Counted from the stretch's first letter, positions 2,330 to 8,043 are shown. The stretch is DNA of 8,043 nucleotides from a virus (IMGVR_UViG_2617270947_000017), one strand, 5' to 3'. The notes: generated from the sequence alone by a model not told the origin. Program-made: numbers and translations.

Positions 2330-2533
2330 ATGAACATCGACACTATCCCTACAAAAGGCTATATCAGACGCTTTCGCCTGGCTGAATTGCTGGGCGTTAG
2401 TGTATCCACCATCGACCGTAAAGTAAGAAACGGTTCACTACCACGTCCGGTAAAGCTGGGAGAAAAAATAACTGCGTTTGATGCGGTTGAGATTCACAAC
2501 TGGCTGGCAGAACGCCGCGGGAAGGTGGCCTGA
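2330..2533 (+). CDS. alpA: AlpA-family phage transcriptional regulator / excisionase-like HTH protein (67 aa)
   Basis: RFRLAELLGVSVSTIDRKVRNGSLPRPVKLGEKITAFDAVEIHNWL matches the AlpA/HTH_17 pattern (HTH, then G.FP.P.KLG, then a tryptophan-containing tail). Typical size and position downstream of a P4-type integrase. Confidence 0.85.
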   Translation: MNIDTIPTKGYIRRFRLAELLGVSVSTIDRKVRNGSLPRPVKLGEKITAFDAVEIHNWLAERRGKVA

Positions 2534-2964
2534 TGGAAAAGAAAAACCGCCCATTACAGGCGGCTAATTCAGATATTCGCGTATCTGATATTACGCCCCT
2601 TACAAAATCACTTCAAGCACCAAAGCGCACACCGAAAAAGCATCGTGCCCGAGTCTATATGCTGCGTACTGGTATAGAGGGATGGACAGAAAATGACATT
2701 CTTCGCTACTGCCGTCTGTCTTCTGGTCGTAACTATGCAACAGAGTTAGAACGCCAGCTTGGAATCACTCTGGAGCGTATCGACGAAAAGAATCCTGATG
2801 GTATCGGAACACACCTTCGCTACCGTTTCTCCTGCCGTGGTGATGTTCTGAAAGTGATCACTCATGTTAACCATCTTGCGAACATAAATGATCACAACGG
2901 ACTTTCTCAGCAGGAAATTGCCGACATTCTGAAACTCTACCCGGACGCGTTTAACGCCGCCTAA
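2533..2964 (+). CDS. Hypothetical protein (143 aa), translationally coupled to alpA
   Basis: ATG overlaps the alpA TGA stop (ATGA at 2531-2535). Basic N-terminus (PKRTPKKHRAR) suggests nucleic-acid binding. No motif I can assign. Confidence 0.65.
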   Translation: MEKKNRPLQAANSDIRVSDITPLTKSLQAPKRTPKKHRARVYMLRTGIEGWTENDILRYCRLSSGRNYATELERQLGITLERIDEKNPDGIGTHLRYRFSCRGDVLKVITHVNHLANINDHNGLSQQEIADILKLYPDAFNAA

Positions 2965-2976
2965 CGGAGACTGAAA

Positions 2977-3810
2977 ATGAACATCGAAAAAAGCAGATTA
3001 ATTTCTGAGGCCGCCCCTCATCTGAACGCCTCTCTGGGCACAATTAACGGTAATGAATTTGCCGCAATTGTCCCGGTTATTCCTGGTCATATCGGTGGGC
3101 GTGAAACCAATATTGTTAGCGCAAAAGCGTTACACAAAGCGTTGGGCGTGGGAAAAGACTTCTCTACATGGATCACTGATCGCATCTCTGAATATGACTT
3201 CACCATTGGGCACGATTACTCAGTCCATAAAACTATTTCCCCAAATTTGGGGAAAAGCCCGAATAGCGCGGCTTACAGCAAGATTAAGCACTCTGGCAGA
3301 CCCGGTAAAGACTATCTGTTAAGTGTCGGAATGGCGAAAGAACTGGCAATGATCGAACGCACCGAACAGGGCCGCGCTATCCGCCGTTATTTCATCCAGT
3401 GCGAGGAAGAATTACAGCGTAGCGTGCCTGAAATCGCCGCCCGCTATCGTCGCCAGCTAAAAGCCCGTATCAGTGCCGCAAACAACTTTAAGCCGATGTG
3501 TGATGCGCTGAATATGGCCCGTGCCGAGCTGGGTAAAACGACGCAGCAGCGCCACTACAGCAACGAGAGCAACATGATCGCCCGTATCGTGCTGGGTGGC
3601 ATGACGGCGAAGCAGTGGGCGCAGGCAAATGGCATTACTGGCGAACCACGGGACAGCATGAACGCAGCACAGCTTGAACACCTCGCCTATCTCGAAAGCA
3701 CCAATATCACGTTAATTGATATGGGCATGGAATATGAGCAGCGCAAAGGAGAACTCACCCGCCTGTCGCAACGCTGGCTCGCCAAGCGTCTGGAGGCGGT
3801 CAATGTCTAA
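2977..3810 (+). CDS. Phage antirepressor-like protein (277 aa; Ant/KilAC-type motif)
   Basis: GGAG RBS 9 nt upstream of the ATG. Central motif DYLLSVGMAKELAMIERTEQGRAIRRYFIQCEEEL is one I recall from phage antirepressor (Ant/KilA-C-type) proteins. Exact domain assignment needs an HMM search. Confidence 0.7.
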   Translation: MNIEKSRLISEAAPHLNASLGTINGNEFAAIVPVIPGHIGGRETNIVSAKALHKALGVGKDFSTWITDRISEYDFTIGHDYSVHKTISPNLGKSPNSAAYSKIKHSGRPGKDYLLSVGMAKELAMIERTEQGRAIRRYFIQCEEELQRSVPEIAARYRRQLKARISAANNFKPMCDALNMARAELGKTTQQRHYSNESNMIARIVLGGMTAKQWAQANGITGEPRDSMNAAQLEHLAYLESTNITLIDMGMEYEQRKGELTRLSQRWLAKRLEAVNV

Positions 3811-3985
3811 GCCAACAGGAACACCACAACCTCAAAAACGCTACAAAGATGCCCACGGAGCACTCGTTACTGTCGAAAGCGTGTCTCACAACCGAGTGAC
3901 GTTTTATCGCGACGGGTATCAATCGCCATGCGTACAACCGCTGGCGCGTTTCATGAAGGAGTTCGCGGAGGTTAACAAATGCTAA
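3803..3985 (+). CDS. Small hypothetical protein (60 aa), coupled to the antirepressor gene; possibly DUF4222-like
   Basis: GGAGG (3792-3796) 6 nt upstream of ATG 3803; the ATG overlaps the antirepressor stop (3808-3810). Sequence MSKPTGTPQPQKRYKDAHGALVTVESVSHNRVTFYRDGYQSPCVQPLARFMKEFAEV. The longer reading from 3716 in the ORF track overlaps the upstream gene and is less likely. Confidence 0.6.
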   Translation: MSKPTGTPQPQKRYKDAHGALVTVESVSHNRVTFYRDGYQSPCVQPLARFMKEFAEVNKC

Positions 3986-5046
3986 CCGTCCAGAAGAACA
4001 CATTTTCACTGGCTGGTATGTCGCCAAAATCCAGCAATATGACAGCAAAGTCAGGTATTAATACAGCAGATACAAGCAAAATTTATCATTTGCTGGTGGT
4101 AGGAGCGGATGCCTTAACTATGTCAGAAATTACGGGCGATGAAGTTAGCGTTGAGAAGGTCAGCGGCTGCGCCAGAGAATTTCTGGTCGTAGATGACTTT
4201 CTCTGCTCGCGTAGTGACTCCACAAAAACCTTCGTCCACACGCGCGACGTTAACGAAATGAGCGCGATGTATTGTGCATCTGGTGCTTCCAATAGTGAGT
4301 TTTCGGAGTCCATAAAAAAGAGCTTGCCGTTATGCGGCAACACGGTTTATGGTTATAAGGCACCTCATAAAACGGGTGCCGGGATTGGCGTCCTGGTAAA
4401 TCGAATGGCGACATATGACGCGCCGAGCGTCTTTTTTTATGTCGTAGGTCTGACTCACCCATTTTTTGGGCGTTGGTGTATAATCCAGCGCCTTTGTCAA
4501 TCAATGGTGGCTCAGGCAGGGGCTTCTTCGGAAGCGCCGGTATCCATTCGAGCCGGTTACGCCAACCCTGTCTGGGCTACCACCAGCGAAATTGGCGTTT
4601 CCGGTGGTAGCGTTACATGCTATCGAATGGAGGCTGCCACATGCTGGCTACTACCCCTACCCAAAAACCGCAATTTATCTGGATTATCGCCGCAGTTCGC
4701 CGCGATTGCCCGACAATTACCGCCAAAATTCATCATATTGCTGCCGAGTCTGAACGCGATGCTCGCCGTTCTCTGGTGCGCGATCACGTCTGCTTTTTTG
4801 CTGGTCGTATCCGCATGGAGGTGGCTCATGATTAAAACCTACGATGTGCATATGGATCCCCTCGAACGCACAAGCCAGATCATCACACTGACAGAAGTGA
4901 TTAACGACATTCTGGTGAGCAACTCTCCCTCACGAGACGAAAGACTGAAGGCGTTACTCGCGATATTGGATCTCGCCGTTCGTGACGTTCATTTCCTGCT
5001 GGAAGGTGGCGAAATGCCAGGAAAAACGGGGGCAACCAATGAATAA
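3979..5046 (+). CDS. Uncertain: long frame-1 ORF (355 codons), probably not one protein; 5-prime part about 3979-4430 looks coding, remainder ambiguous
   Basis: GGAGG (3966-3970) 8 nt upstream of ATG 3979, which overlaps the previous stop. Codon pattern in about 4060-4420 looks coding (G-rich first positions, common codons). The same frame then passes through a hairpin plus T7 (4417-4438) and a TGTATAAT element (4477-4484), and over 4641-4828 is rich in rare codons (CTA, AGG, ATA, CGA, TTA) while frame 3 looks coding. Frames 2 and 3 carry stops at 4313, 4293/4296/4356 and 4445. Confidence 0.3.
4417..4438 (+). terminator. Candidate intrinsic terminator (5-bp GC-rich stem plus T7) inside the long frame-1 ORF
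   Basis: GACGC (4417-4421), loop GCCGA, GCGTC (4427-4431), then TTTTTTT (4432-4438). Orientation fits the + strand only. Confidence 0.4.
4479..4484 (+). promoter_or_regulatory. Candidate -10 hexamer TATAAT (with upstream GTG) for the small-ORF/primase operon
   Basis: Perfect TATAAT at 4479-4484 preceded by GTG; no good -35 at 16-18 bp spacing, which would fit an activator-dependent promoter (possibly AlpA-dependent; inference). About 155 nt upstream of the ORF starting at 4641. Confidence 0.25.
4641..4835 (+). CDS. Small hypothetical protein (64 aa), first of the coupled small-ORF chain
   Basis: GGAGG (4629-4633) 7 nt upstream of ATG 4641. Frame-3 codons are typical enterobacterial (CTG, GCC, CGC, ACC, GAT) whereas the overlapping frame 1 is rare-codon rich. 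Sequence [64 protein letters not shown]. An alternative start at 4617 is possible. Confidence 0.55.
   Translation: MLATTPTQKPQFIWIIAAVRRDCPTITAKIHHIAAESERDARRSLVRDHVCFFAGRIRMEVAHD
4828..5046 (+). CDS. Small hypothetical protein (72 aa), coupled to the upstream ORF
   Basis: GGAGG (4817-4821) 6 nt upstream of ATG 4828; the ATG overlaps the upstream TAA by 8 nt (ATGATTAA). Shares frame and stop with the long frame-1 ORF, so it could instead be the C-terminus of a longer product. Confidence 0.5.
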   Translation: MIKTYDVHMDPLERTSQIITLTEVINDILVSNSPSRDERLKALLAILDLAVRDVHFLLEGGEMPGKTGATNE

Positions 5047-5233
5047 CTCAATTAATACCCCTCGCCTTACGTCCGCACTTCAATTAATCGAGCAAGCAGC
5101 GGCTGTCCTGGTTGCTGTCAGTCTTTCGGCTGAAGAAATGGACGCTGCTGATGTCGTGGATGCGATTAAAGCGTGCTCATCTTTGGTTAACGATGCCCGT
5201 GCCGAGCTGGTAATTCTTGGGGGTGAAAAATGA
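5039..5233 (+). CDS. Small hypothetical protein (64 aa)
   Basis: GGGGG (5028-5032) 6 nt upstream of ATG 5039; overlaps the previous stop by 8 nt. The ORF track's longer start at 4982 would overlap the upstream gene by about 65 nt and lacks an RBS. Sequence [40 protein letters not shown]... Confidence 0.55.
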   Translation: MNNSINTPRLTSALQLIEQAAAVLVAVSLSAEEMDAADVVDAIKACSSLVNDARAELVILGGEK

Positions 5234-5493
5234 ATATCAACTTAATTTATCGTCATCCGTGTGAGCTGGAAATTGAATCATTGCTGGGGCGCGAAGAGCC
5301 ATATCCAGACACATTCACTCCCGCAGATTGCGCGACTGAACGGCTTACCAGAGCGCGCACAGGTCTGGTTCATGTGATGAATGAGATTGTTCCCTCGGTG
5401 GGAGGGGAACAGGCGACAGTAATCAATAGCTGGCTACAAAAAGTTACCTCCCTGATAGATATCGGTTTAATCGATGTGGAGAGTGCGAAATGA
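5230..5493 (+). CDS. Small hypothetical protein (87 aa)
   Basis: ATGA start/stop overlap with the upstream ORF (5230-5233); GGGGG 6-10 nt upstream; coding-like codon usage. Confidence 0.65.
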   Translation: MNINLIYRHPCELEIESLLGREEPYPDTFTPADCATERLTRARTGLVHVMNEIVPSVGGEQATVINSWLQKVTSLIDIGLIDVESAK

Positions 5494-5711
5494 CCAACAT
5501 CCAGCTCATTGAAGCGCAATGTCGCATCGAACAGGTTCAGACTGTTTTAGGGTTCTGGCTTGAAAGGGCCAGCCCCAGCAACAGAGACAAGTTAATGATT
5601 GGCGCGGTTATGTCACTGCTCAATGGCGTACCAGAAGCTATTCAGGAAGCGGACGAATTGTTGGGCAAATATGAGTTACAGAATCATTCAGGCGAGGCGA
5701 AACATGAATAA
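5490..5711 (+). CDS. Small hypothetical protein (73 aa)
   Basis: ATGA overlap with the upstream ORF (5490-5493); GGAGAG upstream. Confidence 0.65.
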   Translation: MTNIQLIEAQCRIEQVQTVLGFWLERASPSNRDKLMIGAVMSLLNGVPEAIQEADELLGKYELQNHSGEAKHE

Positions 5712-6306
5712 TTTCTTAACTTTCCATGCAGAAGCAACGCCTGACGGCGTAAACATCATGCACCGCAGCAACGATGGCATGACAGAACGCGTTGAGACCG
5801 TCTCATATATTGATGCCGTAAATCGTCTGGATGCCGGGGATTATGACGATAAACCAGATGAAGGCATGTTTATACATCTCGCTATTGCCAGTGGCGGCAA
5901 CCAGGGATATTTCGATTACACATCACAGCATCACGTGATTATGTGGCGCTGGCTGATAGCAACAGCATTCATCAATGAAATGAGAAAGGAAAACGGCACC
6001 GTCAGCATTATTGATGACAGTGGCAATCATTCCGTGGTTTCTGTTTATTCCAATGGCATCGTCGCCATGCCGCTGTATCCAGTAGCAGAGCGCCTCGCTA
6101 TGGCAAACAACATTGAGGGCGCAATGATCGAGAAATATGGTGTTGATGTCGGAACAAAGAATGCCATCATTTTTTACAGCAACATGTTCGATGTCGAACA
6201 GGGAACACTCACTTCGTTTGGGCGAGAAGTGCTTGCCGATCTTCACAACAGCTTTATTGCCGAACTAAACGAAAACGGCATCCCAGAAGCACCAGTGACG
6301 CACTAA
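5704..6306 (+). CDS. Hypothetical protein (200 aa) immediately upstream of the primase
   Basis: GAGG (5693-5696) 7 nt upstream of ATG 5704; 8-nt overlap with the upstream stop. The ORF track's start at 5599 would overlap the previous gene by more than 100 nt. Stop at 6304-6306 is 12 nt before the primase start. Confidence 0.7.
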   Translation: MNNFLTFHAEATPDGVNIMHRSNDGMTERVETVSYIDAVNRLDAGDYDDKPDEGMFIHLAIASGGNQGYFDYTSQHHVIMWRWLIATAFINEMRKENGTVSIIDDSGNHSVVSVYSNGIVAMPLYPVAERLAMANNIEGAMIEKYGVDVGTKNAIIFYSNMFDVEQGTLTSFGREVLADLHNSFIAELNENGIPEAPVTH

Positions 6307-6318
6307 ACGGGGGCCAGA

Positions 6319-6882
6319 ATGCGAAACATTGATCTTATCCGTCAGGTTATCAGTGCGTCTGAAAACAACTGGCCTCATGTGCTGGGCTGCCTGAACATAA
6401 ATGTCCCTGACTCTCCGCGCCGTCATGCTCCCTGCCCTGCATGTGGGGGTAAAGATCGATTCCGGTTCGATGACAACGGGCGCGGTAGCTTCATCTGTAA
6501 TCAGTGCGGCGCTGGTGATGGGCTGGATTTAATTAAACGCGTAAATAACTGCGACACAACAGAGGCGGCGCTTCTTGCCGCTGATGTTCTGGGTATTGAT
6601 TACCGGACAACGGAAACACCAGAAGCCACCAGCCAGAAACGGGAACAACTGGAAACCGAGCGCCAGCGACGCGAACAGGAGCGCCTGAAAAGGGCAGAGA
6701 AGGACGAACAACAAAGACGGGCTACGTTTTCCCGTCAGTTTGATGACATGCGCAGAAAGGCCGTAAATGGCAAATCTGATTATCTGGTTGCGAAAGGGGT
6801 AGGTGATTTTACATTCCCCGTGTTGCCAGATGGATCTCTGTTGCTGGCGCTGGTGAACCGCCCCGGGAATCCTGGAGACTAA
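6319..6882 (+). pseudogene. Primase N-terminal fragment (P4 alpha-like zinc ribbon plus start of TOPRIM), interrupted by an IS element at about 6853/6854
   Basis: CPACGGKDRFRFDDNGRGSFICNQCG is a CxxC...CxxC primase zinc-ribbon motif; SDYLVAKGV...[15 protein letters not shown] resembles the start of a TOPRIM domain. The reading frame runs into the IS terminal repeat, so the last codons (NRPGNPGD-stop) come from IS sequence. Primases of this type are normally several hundred residues longer. Confidence 0.7.
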
Positions 6883-6907
6883 ACTCCCTGAGAAAGAGGT
6901 AAACAGG

Positions 6908-7234
6908 ATGACTAAAAATACACGTTTTTCCCCCGAGGTCCGTCAACGGGCAGTTCGTATGGTTCTGGAAAGTCAGGGCGAATATGACTCACAATGGGCG
7001 GCAATTTGTTCCATTGCCCCAAAGATTGGCTGTACGCCAGAGACTCTGCGTGTGTGGGTTCGTCAGCATGAGCGGGATACCGGGAGTGGTGATGGTGGAT
7101 TCACCACCGCTGAACGTCAGCGTCTGAAAGAGCTGGAACGTGAAAATCGTGAACTGCGCCGCAGTAACGATATCCTTCGCCAGGCTTCCGCTTATTTTGC
7201 GAAGGCGGAGTTCGACCGCCTCTGGAAAAAATAA
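6908..7234 (+). CDS. IS3-family transposase OrfA (HTH/leucine-zipper subunit), IS629-like (108 aa)
   Basis: [57 protein letters not shown]... matches my recollection of IS629/IS1203 OrfA almost residue for residue; ends [36 protein letters not shown]. Confidence 0.9.
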
Positions 7235-8043
7235 TGCCACTGCTGGATAAGCTGCGTGAGCAGTACGGGGTCGGACCGGTATGCAGTGAACTGCATATTG
7301 CCCCGTCAACGTATTACCACTGTCAGCAACAGCGACATCATCCTGATAAACGCAGTGCCCGTGCGCAGCGCGATGACTGGCTGAAGAGAGAGATACAGCG
7401 CGTATACGATGAAAATCATCAGGTGTACGGTGTGCGTAAAGTCTGGCGCCAGTTGTTACGCGAAGGTATCAGGGTGGCCAGATGTACAGTGGCGCGCCTC
7501 ATGGCGGTTATGGGACTTGCCGGTGTTCTCCGGGGTAAAAAGGTCCGTACTACCGTCAGCCGGAAAGCCGTTTCCGCAGGCGACCGCGTAAACCGTCAGT
7601 TCGTGGCAGAACGACCTGACCAGCTGTGGGTGGCTGATTTTACTTACGTCAGCACATGGCGGGGCTTCGTCTATGTGGCGTTCATCATTGATGTGTTTGC
7701 CGGATACATTGTGGGGTGGCGGGTCTCATCGTCCATGGAGACGACATTCGTGCTGGATGCACTGGAGCAGGCGTTATGGGCCCGTCGACCGTCCGGCACG
7801 GTCCATCACAGTGATAAAGGTTCTCAGTATGTATCGCTGGCCTACACACAGCGGCTTAAGGAAGCCGGATTACTGGCATCAACAGGAAGTACAGGCGACT
7901 CGTATGACAACGCGATGGCGGAGAGCATCAATGGTCTTTACAAAGCTGAGGTAATACACCGTAAGAGCTGGAAAAACCGTGCAGAAGTGGAACTGGCCAC
8001 ACTCACGTGGGTGGACTGGTATAACAATCGACGATTGCTGGAA
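7234..8043 (+). CDS. IS3-family transposase OrfB (DDE/rve catalytic subunit), IS629-like; partial, runs off the window end
   Basis: Frame-1 reading from ATG 7234 (overlapping the orfA TAA) is open to the window end (270 codons). Hand translation gives [21 protein letters not shown]...DQLWVADFTYVSTWRGFVYVAFIIDVFAGYIVGW...HSDKGSQYVSLAYTQRLKEAGLLASTGSTGDSYDNAMAESINGLYKAEVIH..., with the DDE-integrase hallmarks. Not in the ORF track because no stop lies within the window. Confidence 0.9.
   Translation, partial: MPLLDKLREQYGVGPVCSELHIAPSTYYHCQQQRHHPDKRSARAQRDDWLKREIQRVYDENHQVYGVRKVWRQLLREGIRVARCTVARLMAVMGLAGVLRGKKVRTTVSRKAVSAGDRVNRQFVAERPDQLWVADFTYVSTWRGFVYVAFIIDVFAGYIVGWRVSSSMETTFVLDALEQALWARRPSGTVHHSDKGSQYVSLAYTQRLKEAGLLASTGSTGDSYDNAMAESINGLYKAEVIHRKSWKNRAEVELATLTWVDWYNNRRLLE

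Follow-up and report, generated by a model that had tools for sequence, protein, structure and literature searches.

The stretch of DNA that was analyzed, hereafter the window, comprises 8,043 nucleotides from the virus IMGVR_UViG_2617270947_000017. It contains co-oriented genes for an integrase, an AlpA-family regulator, and a primase in the order found in PICIs, and ends inside an insertion sequence, so that it does not include the late region. The features at its two ends are as follows.

1–1254: integrase.
6319–6882, plus strand: N-terminal fragment (187 aa) of a primase-helicase of the TOPRIM/DUF927 type, with a zinc ribbon (Pfam PF08273, E = 4e-16).
6908–7234: orfA of the IS.
7189–7305: ALIL frameshift pseudoknot.

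The primase is cut off by the IS3-family insertion, intact relatives having 783 to 918 aa. Synteny was found with EcCIMP1, a PICI that resides in E. coli MP1 and is mobilized by Kapi1, a P22-like phage (Pick et al., 2025, PMC11773190). The earlier note had taken the element for a phage satellite; this identity was upheld by the occurrence of the same module in EcCIMP1, whose PICI nature has been verified by experiment. The element is an EcCIMP1-like PICI with a primase cut by an IS. The two islands agree in the succession of genes from AlpA through the primase, including the Icd-like gene and ORF3 to ORF6 described below, and the accessions of the EcCIMP1 ORF3 to ORF5 proteins are identical to those of a close relative of the window (locus L006). 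EcCIMP1 differs from the window by its integrase, by its insertion at tRNA-Thr/proA in MP1 rather than beside yicC, as in the closest relative of the window, and by an intact primase, ahead of which it carries two additional small genes. A circular relative of 12,152 bp also exists. Helper-induced excision, replication, and packaging have been shown experimentally only for EcCIMP1 with Kapi1 (PMC11773190). In that system, AlpA is the master regulator, no role of RNA immunity was reported, and the RNA module and small ORFs were not discussed (PMC11773190). Since the primase is disrupted by the IS, the module may no longer matter to this particular copy of the island.

Upstream from the primase, the window carries an array of overlapping ORFs.

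4641–4835, plus strand: ORF1, 64 aa, Icd/Kil-family cell-division inhibitor or killer, first cistron of the putative immunity-controlled operon.
4828–5046, plus strand: ORF2, 72 aa, its ATG overlapping the icd stop by 8 nt, with its own Shine-Dalgarno sequence GGAGGTGG.
5039–5233, plus strand: ORF3, 64 aa.
5230–5493, plus strand: ORF4, 87 aa, predicted to form a short helix and a long helical hairpin.
5490–5711, plus strand: ORF5, 73 aa, predicted three-helix protein.
5704–6306, plus strand: ORF6, 200 aa, last coupled gene ahead of the primase (phrog_1515, E = 1e-47).

The earlier note had described five translationally coupled small ORFs (64, 72, 64, 87, and 73 aa) leading through a 200-aa ORF into a primase operon. 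The positions of the five ORFs were confirmed, as were the overlaps of 8, 8, 4, 4, and 8 nt from ORF1 down to ORF6, and the chain up to the primase operon proved to be real and conserved. Inspection of the sequence revealed a purine-rich Shine-Dalgarno-like motif 5 to 9 nt upstream from every start in the chain, including GGAGG at positions 4629–4633 ahead of the ORF1 ATG (4641). The primase starts at position 6319, after a gap of 12 nt following ORF6, and has its own Shine-Dalgarno sequence. Exactly these genes were called in one PGAP annotation (NZ_CP123593). All six proteins are present in public collections, four of the exact sequences being each found on at least 1000 contigs. In 93 related loci, the region from icd to the primase contained 270 distinct junctions of neighboring genes, comprising 121 overlaps of 4 nt, 76 overlaps of 8 nt, and 61 gaps. 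The order of the genes was fixed across related islands, and the 4- and 8-nt overlaps were kept in very divergent loci. Loss of coding conservation in homologous elements, which the earlier note had named as evidence against the array, was not observed, since dN/dS was 0.2 to 0.3 for ORF2 to ORF6. The NG86 medians were 0.30 for ORF2, 0.20 for ORF3, 0.31 for ORF4, 0.22 for ORF5, and 0.25 for ORF6 (dS of ca. 1.5), and pN/pS was 0.31 in the icd frame (ORF1). As judged from these substitution ratios, all tested families of the array are under purifying selection. The five overlapping small genes are real genes located at the front of the satellite replication operon.

Two RNA genes missed by the earlier note were detected 50 to 280 nt upstream from ORF1, together with the following elements.

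4324–4329 and 4348–4353, plus strand: −35 (TTGCCG) and −10 (TATGGT) boxes of a putative sigma-70 promoter for isrK and the operon.
4360–4437, plus strand: isrK/SeqA-like RNA (Rfam RF01394, 67.1 bits, E = 4.5e-13).
4385–4391 and 4401–4408, plus strand: upstream C4 targets b1 and a1 within isrK, which co-vary with C4.
4417–4431, plus strand: isrK terminator hairpin and T-run, detected by a terminator scan.
4478–4485, plus strand: putative extended −10 box TGTATAAT located between isrK and C4, which may form a second promoter.
4500–4587, plus strand: C4/CI-type antisense immunity RNA (Rfam RF01695, 79.5 bits for a gathering score of 45, E = 7.7e-15).
4543–4551 and 4559–4565, plus strand: recognition loop a′ and single-stranded segment b′ of C4.
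4592–4633, plus strand: leader with the downstream targets b2 (4592–4598) and a2 (4623–4631), identified by reading of the sequence.

The putative sigma-70 promoter at 4324–4353 was not picked up by a simple promoter scan; its position and sequence were conserved in almost all of ca. 55 distinct upstream sequences. We liken the TGTATAAT box to P51b of phage P1. A TATAAT-type box was found in most, not all, of the isrK-C4 spacers of relatives of the window, in contrast to phage P4, which has no such box between the two RNAs.

C4 was found in 92 of 92 loci, and the isrK and C4 pair in all eight relatives scanned. The consensus structure of C4, based on 39 sequences, contains 28 pairs, 16 of which display compensatory changes. 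In the window, a′ is complementary to both a2 and a1, and b′ to both b2 and b1, the match with the two leader sites a2 and b2 being exact; a third complementarity involves positions 4603–4611 and the 3′ strand of the C4 stem (4576–4584). The a2 target covers the first three bases of the icd Shine-Dalgarno sequence GGAGG, which is located 7 nt before the ATG, and a2 ends in the Shine-Dalgarno GGA in most alleles. Twenty-eight distinct C4 recognition cores were present in the 92 related loci, nearly every one being matched by exact complements in the leader and upstream sequences of the same locus. The predicted energy of the duplex formed by C4 and its target had a median of −36.2 kcal/mol for cognate pairs versus −24.9 kcal/mol for non-cognate pairs. 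Eight E. coli loci harbored three immunity alleles, which differed by coordinated changes at three sites in otherwise near-identical DNA. Since the co-varying antisense target is the ribosome binding site of the first cistron, we argue that coupling is used for control. The two RNA genes are likely to give the coupling its regulatory meaning.

These observations bear on the reading proposed in the earlier note, according to which the array encodes independent helper-interference, derepression, or anti-defence factors and the overlaps reflect genome compaction only. The presence of a Shine-Dalgarno-like motif at every ORF is in agreement with this reading, which nonetheless fits poorly with the strict colinearity of the genes, the preservation of the 4- and 8-nt overlaps in very divergent loci, and the targeting of the ribosome binding site of the first cistron by a co-varying antisense RNA. 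We regard it as doubtful on the whole. It is compatible with the explanation that we prefer, control of a coupled operon by RNA immunity, as far as the function of the proteins is concerned, and differs from it only with respect to the meaning of the coupling.

The earlier note had also stated that none of the small proteins matched a family that could be named. This did not hold for ORF1, which matched the Icd/Kil family (NCBIfam NF033153, E = 3.7e-20) and was 44% identical to Kil of P4 in a BLASTP comparison (E = 4e-11). ORF5 and ORF6 also matched PHROG families, both of unknown function. For ORF2, no family match was obtained in Pfam, PHROG, or NCBIfam. By sequence similarity, ORF1 is a homologue of the Icd/Kil cell-division inhibitors, and its product should be toxic because it would block cell division. 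The start at position 4641, giving a 64-aa protein, is better than the 72-aa version starting at 4617 that is frequently called by PGAP, since the former has a Shine-Dalgarno sequence, matches the 65-aa Kil protein of P4, and is conserved in relatives.

The head of the chain was placed by the earlier note at position 4641. This was not borne out, as the chain extends further upstream, via a long ORF, to DUF4222, AntA/B, and AlpA.

2330–2533, plus strand: AlpA-family regulator at the head of the upstream operon (homologues annotated by PGAP as helix-turn-helix regulators, and as AlpA family in Klebsiella relatives).
2533–2964, plus strand: hypothetical protein of 143 aa, its start sharing one base with the AlpA stop.
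2977–3810, plus strand: antirepressor of the AntA/AntB family (PGAP annotation of near-identical relatives).
3803–3985, plus strand: DUF4222 protein (Pfam PF13973, E = 6e-25; pN/pS of 0.06).
3979–5046, plus strand: Eta/"Ash"-like read-through ORF of 355 codons, coupled to DUF4222 and ending as ORF2.

The 143-aa protein did not match any family in Pfam, PHROG, or NCBIfam. The DUF4222 ORF overlaps the AntA/B ORF by 8 nt, and its stop codon (3983–3985) overlaps the start of the long ORF. Overlap of the long-ORF start with the upstream stop was observed in 49 of 54 distinct loci. The long ORF spans the promoter, both RNA genes, and, in the +1 frame, all of icd. It is usually labeled "ash family protein" by PGAP, and many annotations lack ORF1 and ORF2. 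The match with Pfam PF10554 involves residues 124 to 232, corresponding approximately to nucleotides 4348–4674, from isrK to the start of icd, and includes both RNA genes.

Two opposite interpretations of the long ORF had to be considered. The first is that the 355-aa "Ash family protein" is a real gene, ORF1 and ORF2 not being separate genes. Indeed, the frame 3979–5046 is open in relatives, coupled to DUF4222, and matched by PF10554, and PGAP annotates "Ash" in most genomes. However, the Eta/Ash frame displayed no amino-acid constraint, pN/pS being 1.06 over the RNA genes and 1.7 over icd (4641–4835), where selection operates in the icd frame. In addition, E. coli and Klebsiella have unrelated 5′ parts of the long ORF, the Pfam domain falls on two Rfam RNA genes, ORF1 matches both the Icd family and Kil of P4, and ORF2 is free-standing where the long ORF stops at icd. 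The existence of a genuine Ash gene replacing ORF1 and ORF2 is therefore very unlikely, and Ash as a conventional protein was rejected on the basis of pN/pS. The second interpretation, a merely spurious translation of the RNA genes, was also dropped, since the frame over the RNA genes was free of stop codons in 91 of 92 loci in spite of indels and unrelated 5′ parts, and since its start is coupled. As for eta in P4, we favor the view that what matters is the act of translating the long ORF, not a folded 355-aa protein. The Pfam and PGAP "Ash family protein" domain, as the translation of two RNA genes, represents a systematic annotation problem, owing to which the Icd/Kil gene and ORF2 are often left unannotated.

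The arrangement of the window, with an Eta-like ORF in the +1 frame of icd, was present in 58 of the 92 loci. The +1 frame inside icd was stop-free in 39 of 39 sequences of the window type versus 8 of 26 sequences of the P4 type, in which this frame is not used (p = 3e-10). ORF2 also forms the C-terminal end of the 355-codon ORF, with which it is in frame, and is a separate cistron in loci in which the long ORF ends at icd (e.g. L028 and L065). A possible reading, which we put forward tentatively and hold at somewhat below even chances, is that the Eta-like ORF has moved to the +1 frame of icd/kil, is selected for its translation rather than for its product, and fuses in frame either to ORF2 or to a 59-aa family (f5), ORF2 being made in two forms. 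If this is true, a free 72-aa ORF2 would be produced under C4 control, versus the C-terminal domain of a read-through product of ca. 355 aa that would be made only when AlpA-driven transcription arrives, and the two forms could switch between the quiescent and induced states. This +1-frame variant of the "nested genes" of P4 was not found in the literature examined.

The module is closely related to previously described control systems. In the immI region of P1, a C4 antisense RNA acts via its a′ and b′ segments on targets located upstream (a1b1) and at the icd ribosome binding site (a2b2). In P1, icd serves as the leader cistron to which the downstream genes are coupled, and co-variation of the RNA and its targets accounts for heteroimmunity. 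The features of the C4 module of P1/P7 immI (c4 RNA, icd, ant1/ant2) are common to the window. Like the P1 c4/P4 CI type, the window has a same-strand leader C4 RNA, co-varying target sets, and an a2 target at the Icd/Kil ribosome binding site. The downstream gene is an antirepressor in P1, whereas in the window AntA/B is encoded upstream from the RNA module, which is followed by small genes and the primase. P1 is not known to have an Eta-like read-through ORF.

The immunity region and left operon of P4 comprise, in this order, PLE, seqA, the cI RNA, seqC, kil/eta, epsilon, orf151, orf106, and alpha, with seqA and seqC corresponding to the upstream (a1b1) and downstream (a2b2) targets. P4 harbors the same two Rfam RNAs, at the cI and seqA positions and in the same order and on the same strand as in the window. 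Its eta ORF crosses the RNA genes and matches PF10554, its Kil protein is homologous to ORF1, and its kil and eta genes overlap the next genes by 8 nt (8 and 8 nt at the kil-epsilon-orf151 junctions), the primase gene ending the operon. A promoter-like TTGCCT/TATAGT pair, which we take to be PLE, is located upstream from seqA at the position of the putative promoter of the window. The P4-type nested ORF is present in the window as a variant that nests ORF2 instead of Kil: eta of P4 ends as Kil, whereas the long ORF of the window reads through icd in the +1 frame and is fused to ORF2. The TOPRIM/DUF927 primase of the window, with its T7-like zinc ribbon, also differs from that of P4, and epsilon, orf151, and orf106 of P4 are not related to ORF2 to ORF6. 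By strict criteria, the element is not a P4-like satellite, as no epsilon protein was found among its ORFs and as sid, delta, and psu were not found in the PGAP annotations of the intact relatives inspected, whose late regions encode DUF2824 and P22-type ejection proteins. The immunity and eta mechanism of P4 has been summarized, and matches of Gram-negative PICIs with the Rfam C4 and isrK models have been reported (PMC10111431). Translational coupling downstream of isrK has also been described for the isrK-orf45-anrP locus of Gifsy-1 in Salmonella, IsrK being equated with SeqA of P4 (Hershko-Shalev et al., 2016, PMC4825925). In Gifsy-1, as is proposed for the window, an isrK RNA with a leaky terminator precedes a processed RNA and a small leader ORF, the translation of which is required for the coupled downstream gene, but in Gifsy-1 the short IsrK activates orf45 translation in trans and the downstream gene encodes an antirepressor, with no primase operon (PMC4825925).

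Together, these data make it probable that the small ORFs make up the promoter-proximal part of the early/replication operon in a P4-related satellite of the EcCIMP1 type, an operon most likely gated by an RNA immunity of the P1 c4/P4 CI type. By analogy with P1 immI and the left operon of P4, the C4 RNA would be processed from the leader transcript in the quiescent island and would pair with the ribosome binding site of ORF1, which would not be translated. Since ribosomes would reach ORF2 to ORF6, and probably also the primase, by termination-reinitiation, the whole chain would remain untranslated and the naked RNA would then be terminated by Rho. A single RNA duplex would hold off replication and all accessory proteins. 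The primase may be partly independent of the coupling, in view of the gapped junctions and of the 12-nt gap and own Shine-Dalgarno sequence at the ORF6-primase junction, and some independent initiation is possible along the array since each small ORF has its own Shine-Dalgarno-like motif. Published data on eta of P4 and the conservation measured here suggest a second entry into the operon, following induction of AlpA-driven transcription from upstream by a helper phage. Ribosomes coupled from DUF4222 would translate the Eta/Ash-like ORF across the promoter, the isrK terminator, C4, and icd into ORF2, and would be delivered to ORF3 and the following cistrons, bypassing the C4-blocked site in an immunity-insensitive manner. 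The control design itself is not new, being known from phages P1 and P4.

Concerning the proteins encoded downstream from icd, ORF2 was 53% identical to its Klebsiella counterpart, which is unannotated. ORF3, for which no credible family was identified (weak TY-Chap1 and CARF matches below cut-offs), was present in 29 of ca. 93 loci, its position being held by the f5 family in many relatives. Among the small genes of the array, ORF4 is the most widespread, ORF6 was found in 60 loci, and ORF4, ORF5, and ORF6 were each found in 60 to 76 of ca. 93 loci, whatever the primase type. The small-gene families behave as cassettes that are present or absent across satellites in a strictly colinear order. 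Residues C11, Q15, Q17, W23, and P48 of ORF5 are invariant across genera. Structure prediction provided confident helical models for ORF4 and ORF5, for which fold searches returned only generic matches. Searches with the ORF5 profile and the ORF6 sequence did not reveal any significant match to solved structures. The ORF2 to ORF5 proteins look alike by eye (helix, S/P-rich turn, helix); tandem paralogy was rejected on the basis of Smith-Waterman comparison with shuffled sequences (z < 2). Homology of ORF2 to ORF6 to epsilon, orf151, or orf106 of P4 was also rejected, in the absence of clustering at E < 1e-4 and of a match to the Derepression family. No match to ORF2 to ORF5 was obtained by tblastn (E ≤ 0.01) in 50,697 phage genomes. 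The modeling and sequence searches indicate that ORF2 to ORF5 are predicted small helical proteins, present in satellites but not in the phage genomes searched.

The satellite restriction of ORF2 to ORF5 and the presence/absence cassettes, which are common among accessory or counter-defence genes, are compatible with the independent helper-interaction factors of the earlier note, as is the fact that P4 encodes its helper derepressor, epsilon (PF25738), at the corresponding position. The epsilon gene makes the guess of a helper interaction reasonable. In contrast, no ORF of the window matched the Derepression family PF25738 (recovered with P4 epsilon at E = 9e-51) or any anti-defence model, and PADLOC did not identify any credible candidate among the window ORFs. 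The anti-defence role proposed for these proteins is thus unsupported for ORF2 to ORF5, since structure and fold searches also gave no match or generic matches. ORF2 to ORF5 occupy the place taken in P4 by epsilon and orf151. Within an operon probably controlled by RNA immunity, our best guess, made with low confidence, is that they bind proteins and act on the helper phage or the host when the satellite is induced. ORF4 and ORF5 stand out as the foremost candidates for proteins by which satellites deal with P22-like helpers.

Alternatively, ORF2 to ORF6 could be accessories of primase-helicase replication, involved in origin recognition, helicase loading, or copy control. They invariably lie just upstream from the primase, in the same orientation and coupled to it, ORF4 to ORF6 are widespread regardless of the primase type, and P4 keeps orf151 and orf106 between the immunity region and alpha. 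This proposal appears unlikely, as the proteins have no DNA-binding or ATPase signatures, the predicted folds being plain helical hairpins or bundles. The existence of minimal architectures with one small gene between icd and the primase (f13 in locus L084) further indicates that none of ORF2 to ORF6 is universally needed for replication. It could finally be envisioned that the small ORFs are mere ribosome relays, translation being important to counteract polarity and the products being dispensable. This seems to be true for most of the Eta-like ORF, indicating that the element does use translation-only frames. For ORF2 to ORF6, this possibility is already disfavored and highly improbable in view of dN/dS ratios of 0.2 to 0.3 at a dS of ca. 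1.5, of the invariant residues of ORF5, and of the confident models of ORF4 and ORF5. A coupled operon, probably under the control of an RNA, remains our preferred explanation, and the analysis defines a small set of conserved, satellite-restricted proteins.

A concatenated ORF2 to ORF5 query returned almost only long "Ash" ORFs, a word-indexed search recovered only close relatives of ORF4, and a search of genome contigs with ORF6 returned a single locus; the ORF5 profile query worked well. If the proposed control is correct, an island that is very common in E. coli comes under a well-understood logic of RNA immunity, which was not considered in the sole experimental paper on this island type (PMC11773190). 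The small-ORF array was present in ca. 480 of 5,426 complete genomes, and the RNA module in many more.

The array described in the earlier note, five small overlapping ORFs leading toward a primase gene, was recovered at exactly the positions and sizes claimed, with overlaps of 8, 8, 4, and 4 nt and a further 8-nt overlap into the 200-aa ORF6. The junction between ORF6 and the primase gene is a 12-nt gap, not an overlap. A purine-rich Shine-Dalgarno-like motif precedes the start of each small ORF. Of 5,426 complete E. coli genomes, about 480 carry the array (92-100% identity), and precisely these genes are called in one PGAP annotation. All of its proteins were found in public collections, four of them as exact sequences on at least 1000 contigs.

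Coordinates of the small ORFs and of ORF6, their occurrence among about 93 loci, and median dN/dS (at dS of about 1.5).
4641-4835, ORF1 (icd), 64 aa
4828-5046, ORF2, 72 aa; 36 loci; dN/dS 0.30
5039-5233, ORF3, 64 aa; 29 loci; dN/dS 0.20
5230-5493, ORF4, 87 aa; 76 loci; dN/dS 0.31
5490-5711, ORF5, 73 aa; 71 loci; dN/dS 0.22
5704-6306, ORF6, 200 aa; 60 loci; dN/dS 0.25

Conservation was assessed in 93 related loci, collected from eight E. coli genome loci, five records filed as plasmids (from E. coli, Klebsiella, Raoultella, and Salmonella), P4, and 80 IMG/VR contigs retrieved with the ORF1 protein. At each locus, the chain was walked 3' of ORF1 and its products were clustered into families. The families were colinear, in the order ORF2, ORF3 or a 59-aa protein (f5), a 105-aa protein (f7), ORF4, f10, ORF5, ORF6, a protein of about 116 aa (f4), and the primase. 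Individual families come and go between loci in this nearly constant order, L065 being one exception. Between ORF1 and the primase gene, 270 distinct junctions were counted, of which 121 are overlaps of 4 nt and 76 overlaps of 8 nt. The low dN/dS values and the recurrent overlaps thus indicate that coding conservation, whose loss the earlier note had named as a refuting outcome, is retained in homologous elements.

No product of the array had initially been assigned to a nameable family. This does not hold for ORF1, which matched the NCBIfam model for host cell division inhibitor Icd-like proteins (E = 3.7e-20) and is 44% identical to the 65-aa Kil protein of P4 (E = 4e-11). The start codon originally proposed for ORF1, at 4641, is a better fit to the Shine-Dalgarno motif, to P4 Kil, and to the relatives than position 4617, frequently chosen by PGAP. 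The assessment stands for ORF2, ORF3, and ORF4, which had no match in Pfam, PHROGs, NCBIfam, or PADLOC; ORF5 and ORF6 match PHROG families without known function, ORF5 matching two families of phage proteins. A tblastn search of 50,697 phage genomes gave no match for ORF2 to ORF5 at E ≤ 0.01, and P4 epsilon, orf151, and orf106 are unrelated to any of these ORFs. Among 1.84 billion representative proteins, ORF4 accounts for only 24 clusters, and its AlphaFold model consists of a helix and a long hairpin (pLDDT 84). The ORF5 profile retrieved 305 'hypothetical' proteins across the Enterobacteriaceae; its invariant residues are C11, Q15, Q17, W23, and P48, and three helices are predicted (pLDDT 76). 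The position, size, and cassette-like spread of ORF2 to ORF5 are compatible with the earlier note's idea of factors directed at the helper or the host, and just as well with accessory roles for the primase.

An ORF5-family gene (44% identical) is also present at 3998-4183 of L013, a locus of the Salmonella plasmid NZ_CP045061, in an array of small genes that follows an XRE repressor within an integrative element on a conjugative plasmid. C4 and isrK were looked for at this locus and gave no match; thus, ORF5 also travels outside the RNA-immunity context. ORF4 and ORF5, unrelated in sequence, share one 90%-identity cluster of the protein collection, an artefact that may arise from fused read-through gene calls and that affects member counts. 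The name 'nicotinic acetylcholine receptor subunit beta' is in wide circulation for ORF4 in databases, and was supported by neither the family nor the fold searches; a neighbouring Klebsiella family carries the name 'ubiquinol-cytochrome C reductase'.

An Rfam scan revealed an RNA module upstream from the array that was absent from the earlier account.

RNA module and promoter-like motifs upstream from ORF1.
4324-4329 and 4348-4353, promoter-like pair (-35 TTGCCG, -10 TATGGT) just 5' of isrK
4360-4437, + strand, isrK RNA (67 bits, well over the gathering score)
4478-4485, TATAAT-type box TGTATAAT in the isrK-C4 spacer
4500-4587, + strand, C4 antisense RNA (79.5 bits, well over the gathering score)

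The same pair of RNAs occupies the seqA and cI positions of P4 according to Rfam and was detected in all eight other relatives scanned; C4 was present in 92 of 92 loci. The consensus structure of C4, derived from 39 sequences, comprises 28 base pairs, 16 of which display compensatory double changes. In the window, the unpaired segment a' (hairpin-2 loop, 4543-4551) is complementary to TCGAATGGA at 4623-4631, a target that extends into the GGAGG motif (4629-4633) located 7 nt 5' of the ORF1 ATG. The single-stranded segment beside it, b' (4559-4565), has its complement, TTGGCGT, at 4592-4598. Both target motifs are repeated within isrK, at 4401-4408 and 4385-4391. The promoter-like pair is found in nearly all loci, and P4 has a similar pair (TTGCCT/TATAGT), taken to be PLE, at an equal distance from seqA. 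The TATAAT-type spacer box is present in most other loci but not in P4.

Comparison of eight E. coli loci showed that 35% of the positions differ between 4380 and 4630, without codon periodicity, whereas the flanks are near-identical. These differences are coordinated at the C4 segments, the leader targets, and the isrK targets. The large locus set contained 28 different C4 recognition cores, nearly all of which had an exact complement both in their own leader, mostly ending in the Shine-Dalgarno GGA, and upstream. Median duplex energies were -36.2 kcal/mol for cognate and -24.9 kcal/mol for non-cognate combinations. Judged from the sequences, cores and targets co-vary in the manner characteristic of the heteroimmune c4 systems known from P1/P7 and of P4 CI with seqA and seqC. 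The leader additionally contains GGTGGTAGC (4603-4611), which is exactly complementary to the 3' strand of the basal stem of C4 (4576-4584). This complementarity co-varies in relatives (at least 8 nt in 30 of 44 distinct pairs), suggesting that an alternative hairpin forms in the transcript before processing, perhaps linked to processing or termination.

The region from 3979 to 5046 is usually called by PGAP as a 355-aa 'ash family protein', which absorbs ORF2 and suppresses ORF1. Residues 124-232 match Pfam Phage_ASH (PF10554); the matching span (about nt 4348-4674) starts just 5' of isrK and extends over the two RNA genes and the leader into the first codons of ORF1, where it ends. The possibility that this long ORF is spurious was dropped, as it is contradicted by the openness of the frame, by its endings, and by its coupled start. 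In 91 of 92 loci, one frame was stop-free over the 270 nt 5' of ORF1, even though alleles diverge, indels occur, and the 5' parts are unrelated. The open frame coincides with that of ORF1 and ends at the ORF1 stop codon in 33 loci, P4 among them; in 58, among them the window, the open frame is +1, which runs through the whole of ORF1 and nearly always ends at the stop codon of the next small gene. Within ORF1, the +1 frame was stop-free in all 39 distinct sequences of the window type versus 8 of 26 from the P4 type (Fisher p = 3e-10). In 49 of 54 distinct loci, the long ORF has a first ATG that overlaps the stop codon of a preceding ORF at least 50 codons in length; in the window, the ATG at 3979 stands against the DUF4222 stop codon (3983-3985).

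pN/pS values by region and frame.
ORF1, own frame: 0.31
ORF1 region, long-ORF (+1) frame: 1.7
RNA genes, long-ORF frame: 1.06
5' part of the long ORF: 0.49 (ambiguous, as the +1 frame gives 0.50)
DUF4222 (control): 0.06

Together, the open frame and the pN/pS values indicate that the long ORF is kept open but mostly not kept as a protein. An open but unconstrained ORF likewise fits published P4 eta, which also matches PF10554. In P4, eta contains a constitutive promoter, transcripts end early owing to CI and seqA, and Kil is a truncated Eta (PMC10111431). We found no description of the out-of-frame Eta variant, which overlaps the toxin gene and nests ORF2 and which we propose with low to moderate confidence. 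PF10554 (4348-4674 in the window, 8330-8704 in P4) corresponds to the isrK/SeqA and C4/CI RNA genes, together with the leader, translated in silico. Its use by PGAP leads to inconsistent calls, either a 355-aa 'ash' gene or a pseudo 'ash' with an Icd-like gene, and ORF2 is often unannotated (L002, L007, L009, L010, and EcCIMP1).

The sequences thus contain the RNA genes, co-varying targets on the ribosome-binding site of an Icd/Kil gene, overlapping starts, and an Eta-like frame that is conserved as open and coupled to the operon upstream from it. By analogy with P1 and P4, C4 RNA processed out of the leader would block translation of ORF1. Since the following cistrons would be reached by termination-reinitiation, the chain would remain untranslated up to the primase gene, and the transcript would be terminated by Rho. 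After helper-induced expression of AlpA, ribosomes translating the Eta-like ORF would pass through the immunity region and supply the chain, bypassing the blocked ORF1 site. We consider it likely that this RNA-gated coupled chain is functional in intact relatives. This mode of control is the one known from P4 and P1, and Rfam matches to C4 and isrK in Gram-negative PICIs have been noted (PMC10111431); the design is therefore not new.

Other features of the window.
1-1254, P4-type integrase
1273-2223, low-GC cargo ORF of 316 aa, between integrase and AlpA
2330-2533, AlpA regulator
between the AlpA and AntA/B genes, ORF of 143 aa
2977-3810, AntA/B antirepressor gene
3803-3985, DUF4222 gene
6883-8043, IS3-family element, cutting the primase gene after 187 codons
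6908-7234, IS orfA
7189-7305, ALIL frameshift pseudoknot of the IS (120.9 bits)
to the window end, IS orfB

The satellite copy in the window is probably replication-defective owing to the interruption of the primase gene by the IS, and its small-ORF and RNA module may therefore be a relic. The 316-aa ORF has a GC content of 35-37%, versus about 50% in adjoining genes, and no family match. The slot between integrase and AlpA looks like a cargo position because different genes fill it in relatives (L002 and EcCIMP1). EcCIMP1, a PICI of E. coli MP1 for which induction and transduction by the P22-like phage Kapi1 have been demonstrated experimentally, has an 'Ash family protein' listed among its conserved genes, without discussion of the RNAs and small ORFs (PMC11773190). 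It shares with the window the module AlpA, Icd-like, ORF3 to ORF6, and primase. In intact relatives, genes for P22-type DNA ejection/injection proteins, a DUF2824 gene, and a lytic transglycosylase gene lie 3' of the primase gene (L001, 12786-14521; L002, 12039-14521; L095, 12598-17766). This gene set fits a P22-like helper and suggests that ejection proteins are provided by the satellite itself. A complete circular copy of such an island, 12,152 bp, is filed as a non-mobilizable 12-kb 'plasmid' (L009, NZ_CP148430) and is probably an excised satellite caught in the assembly.
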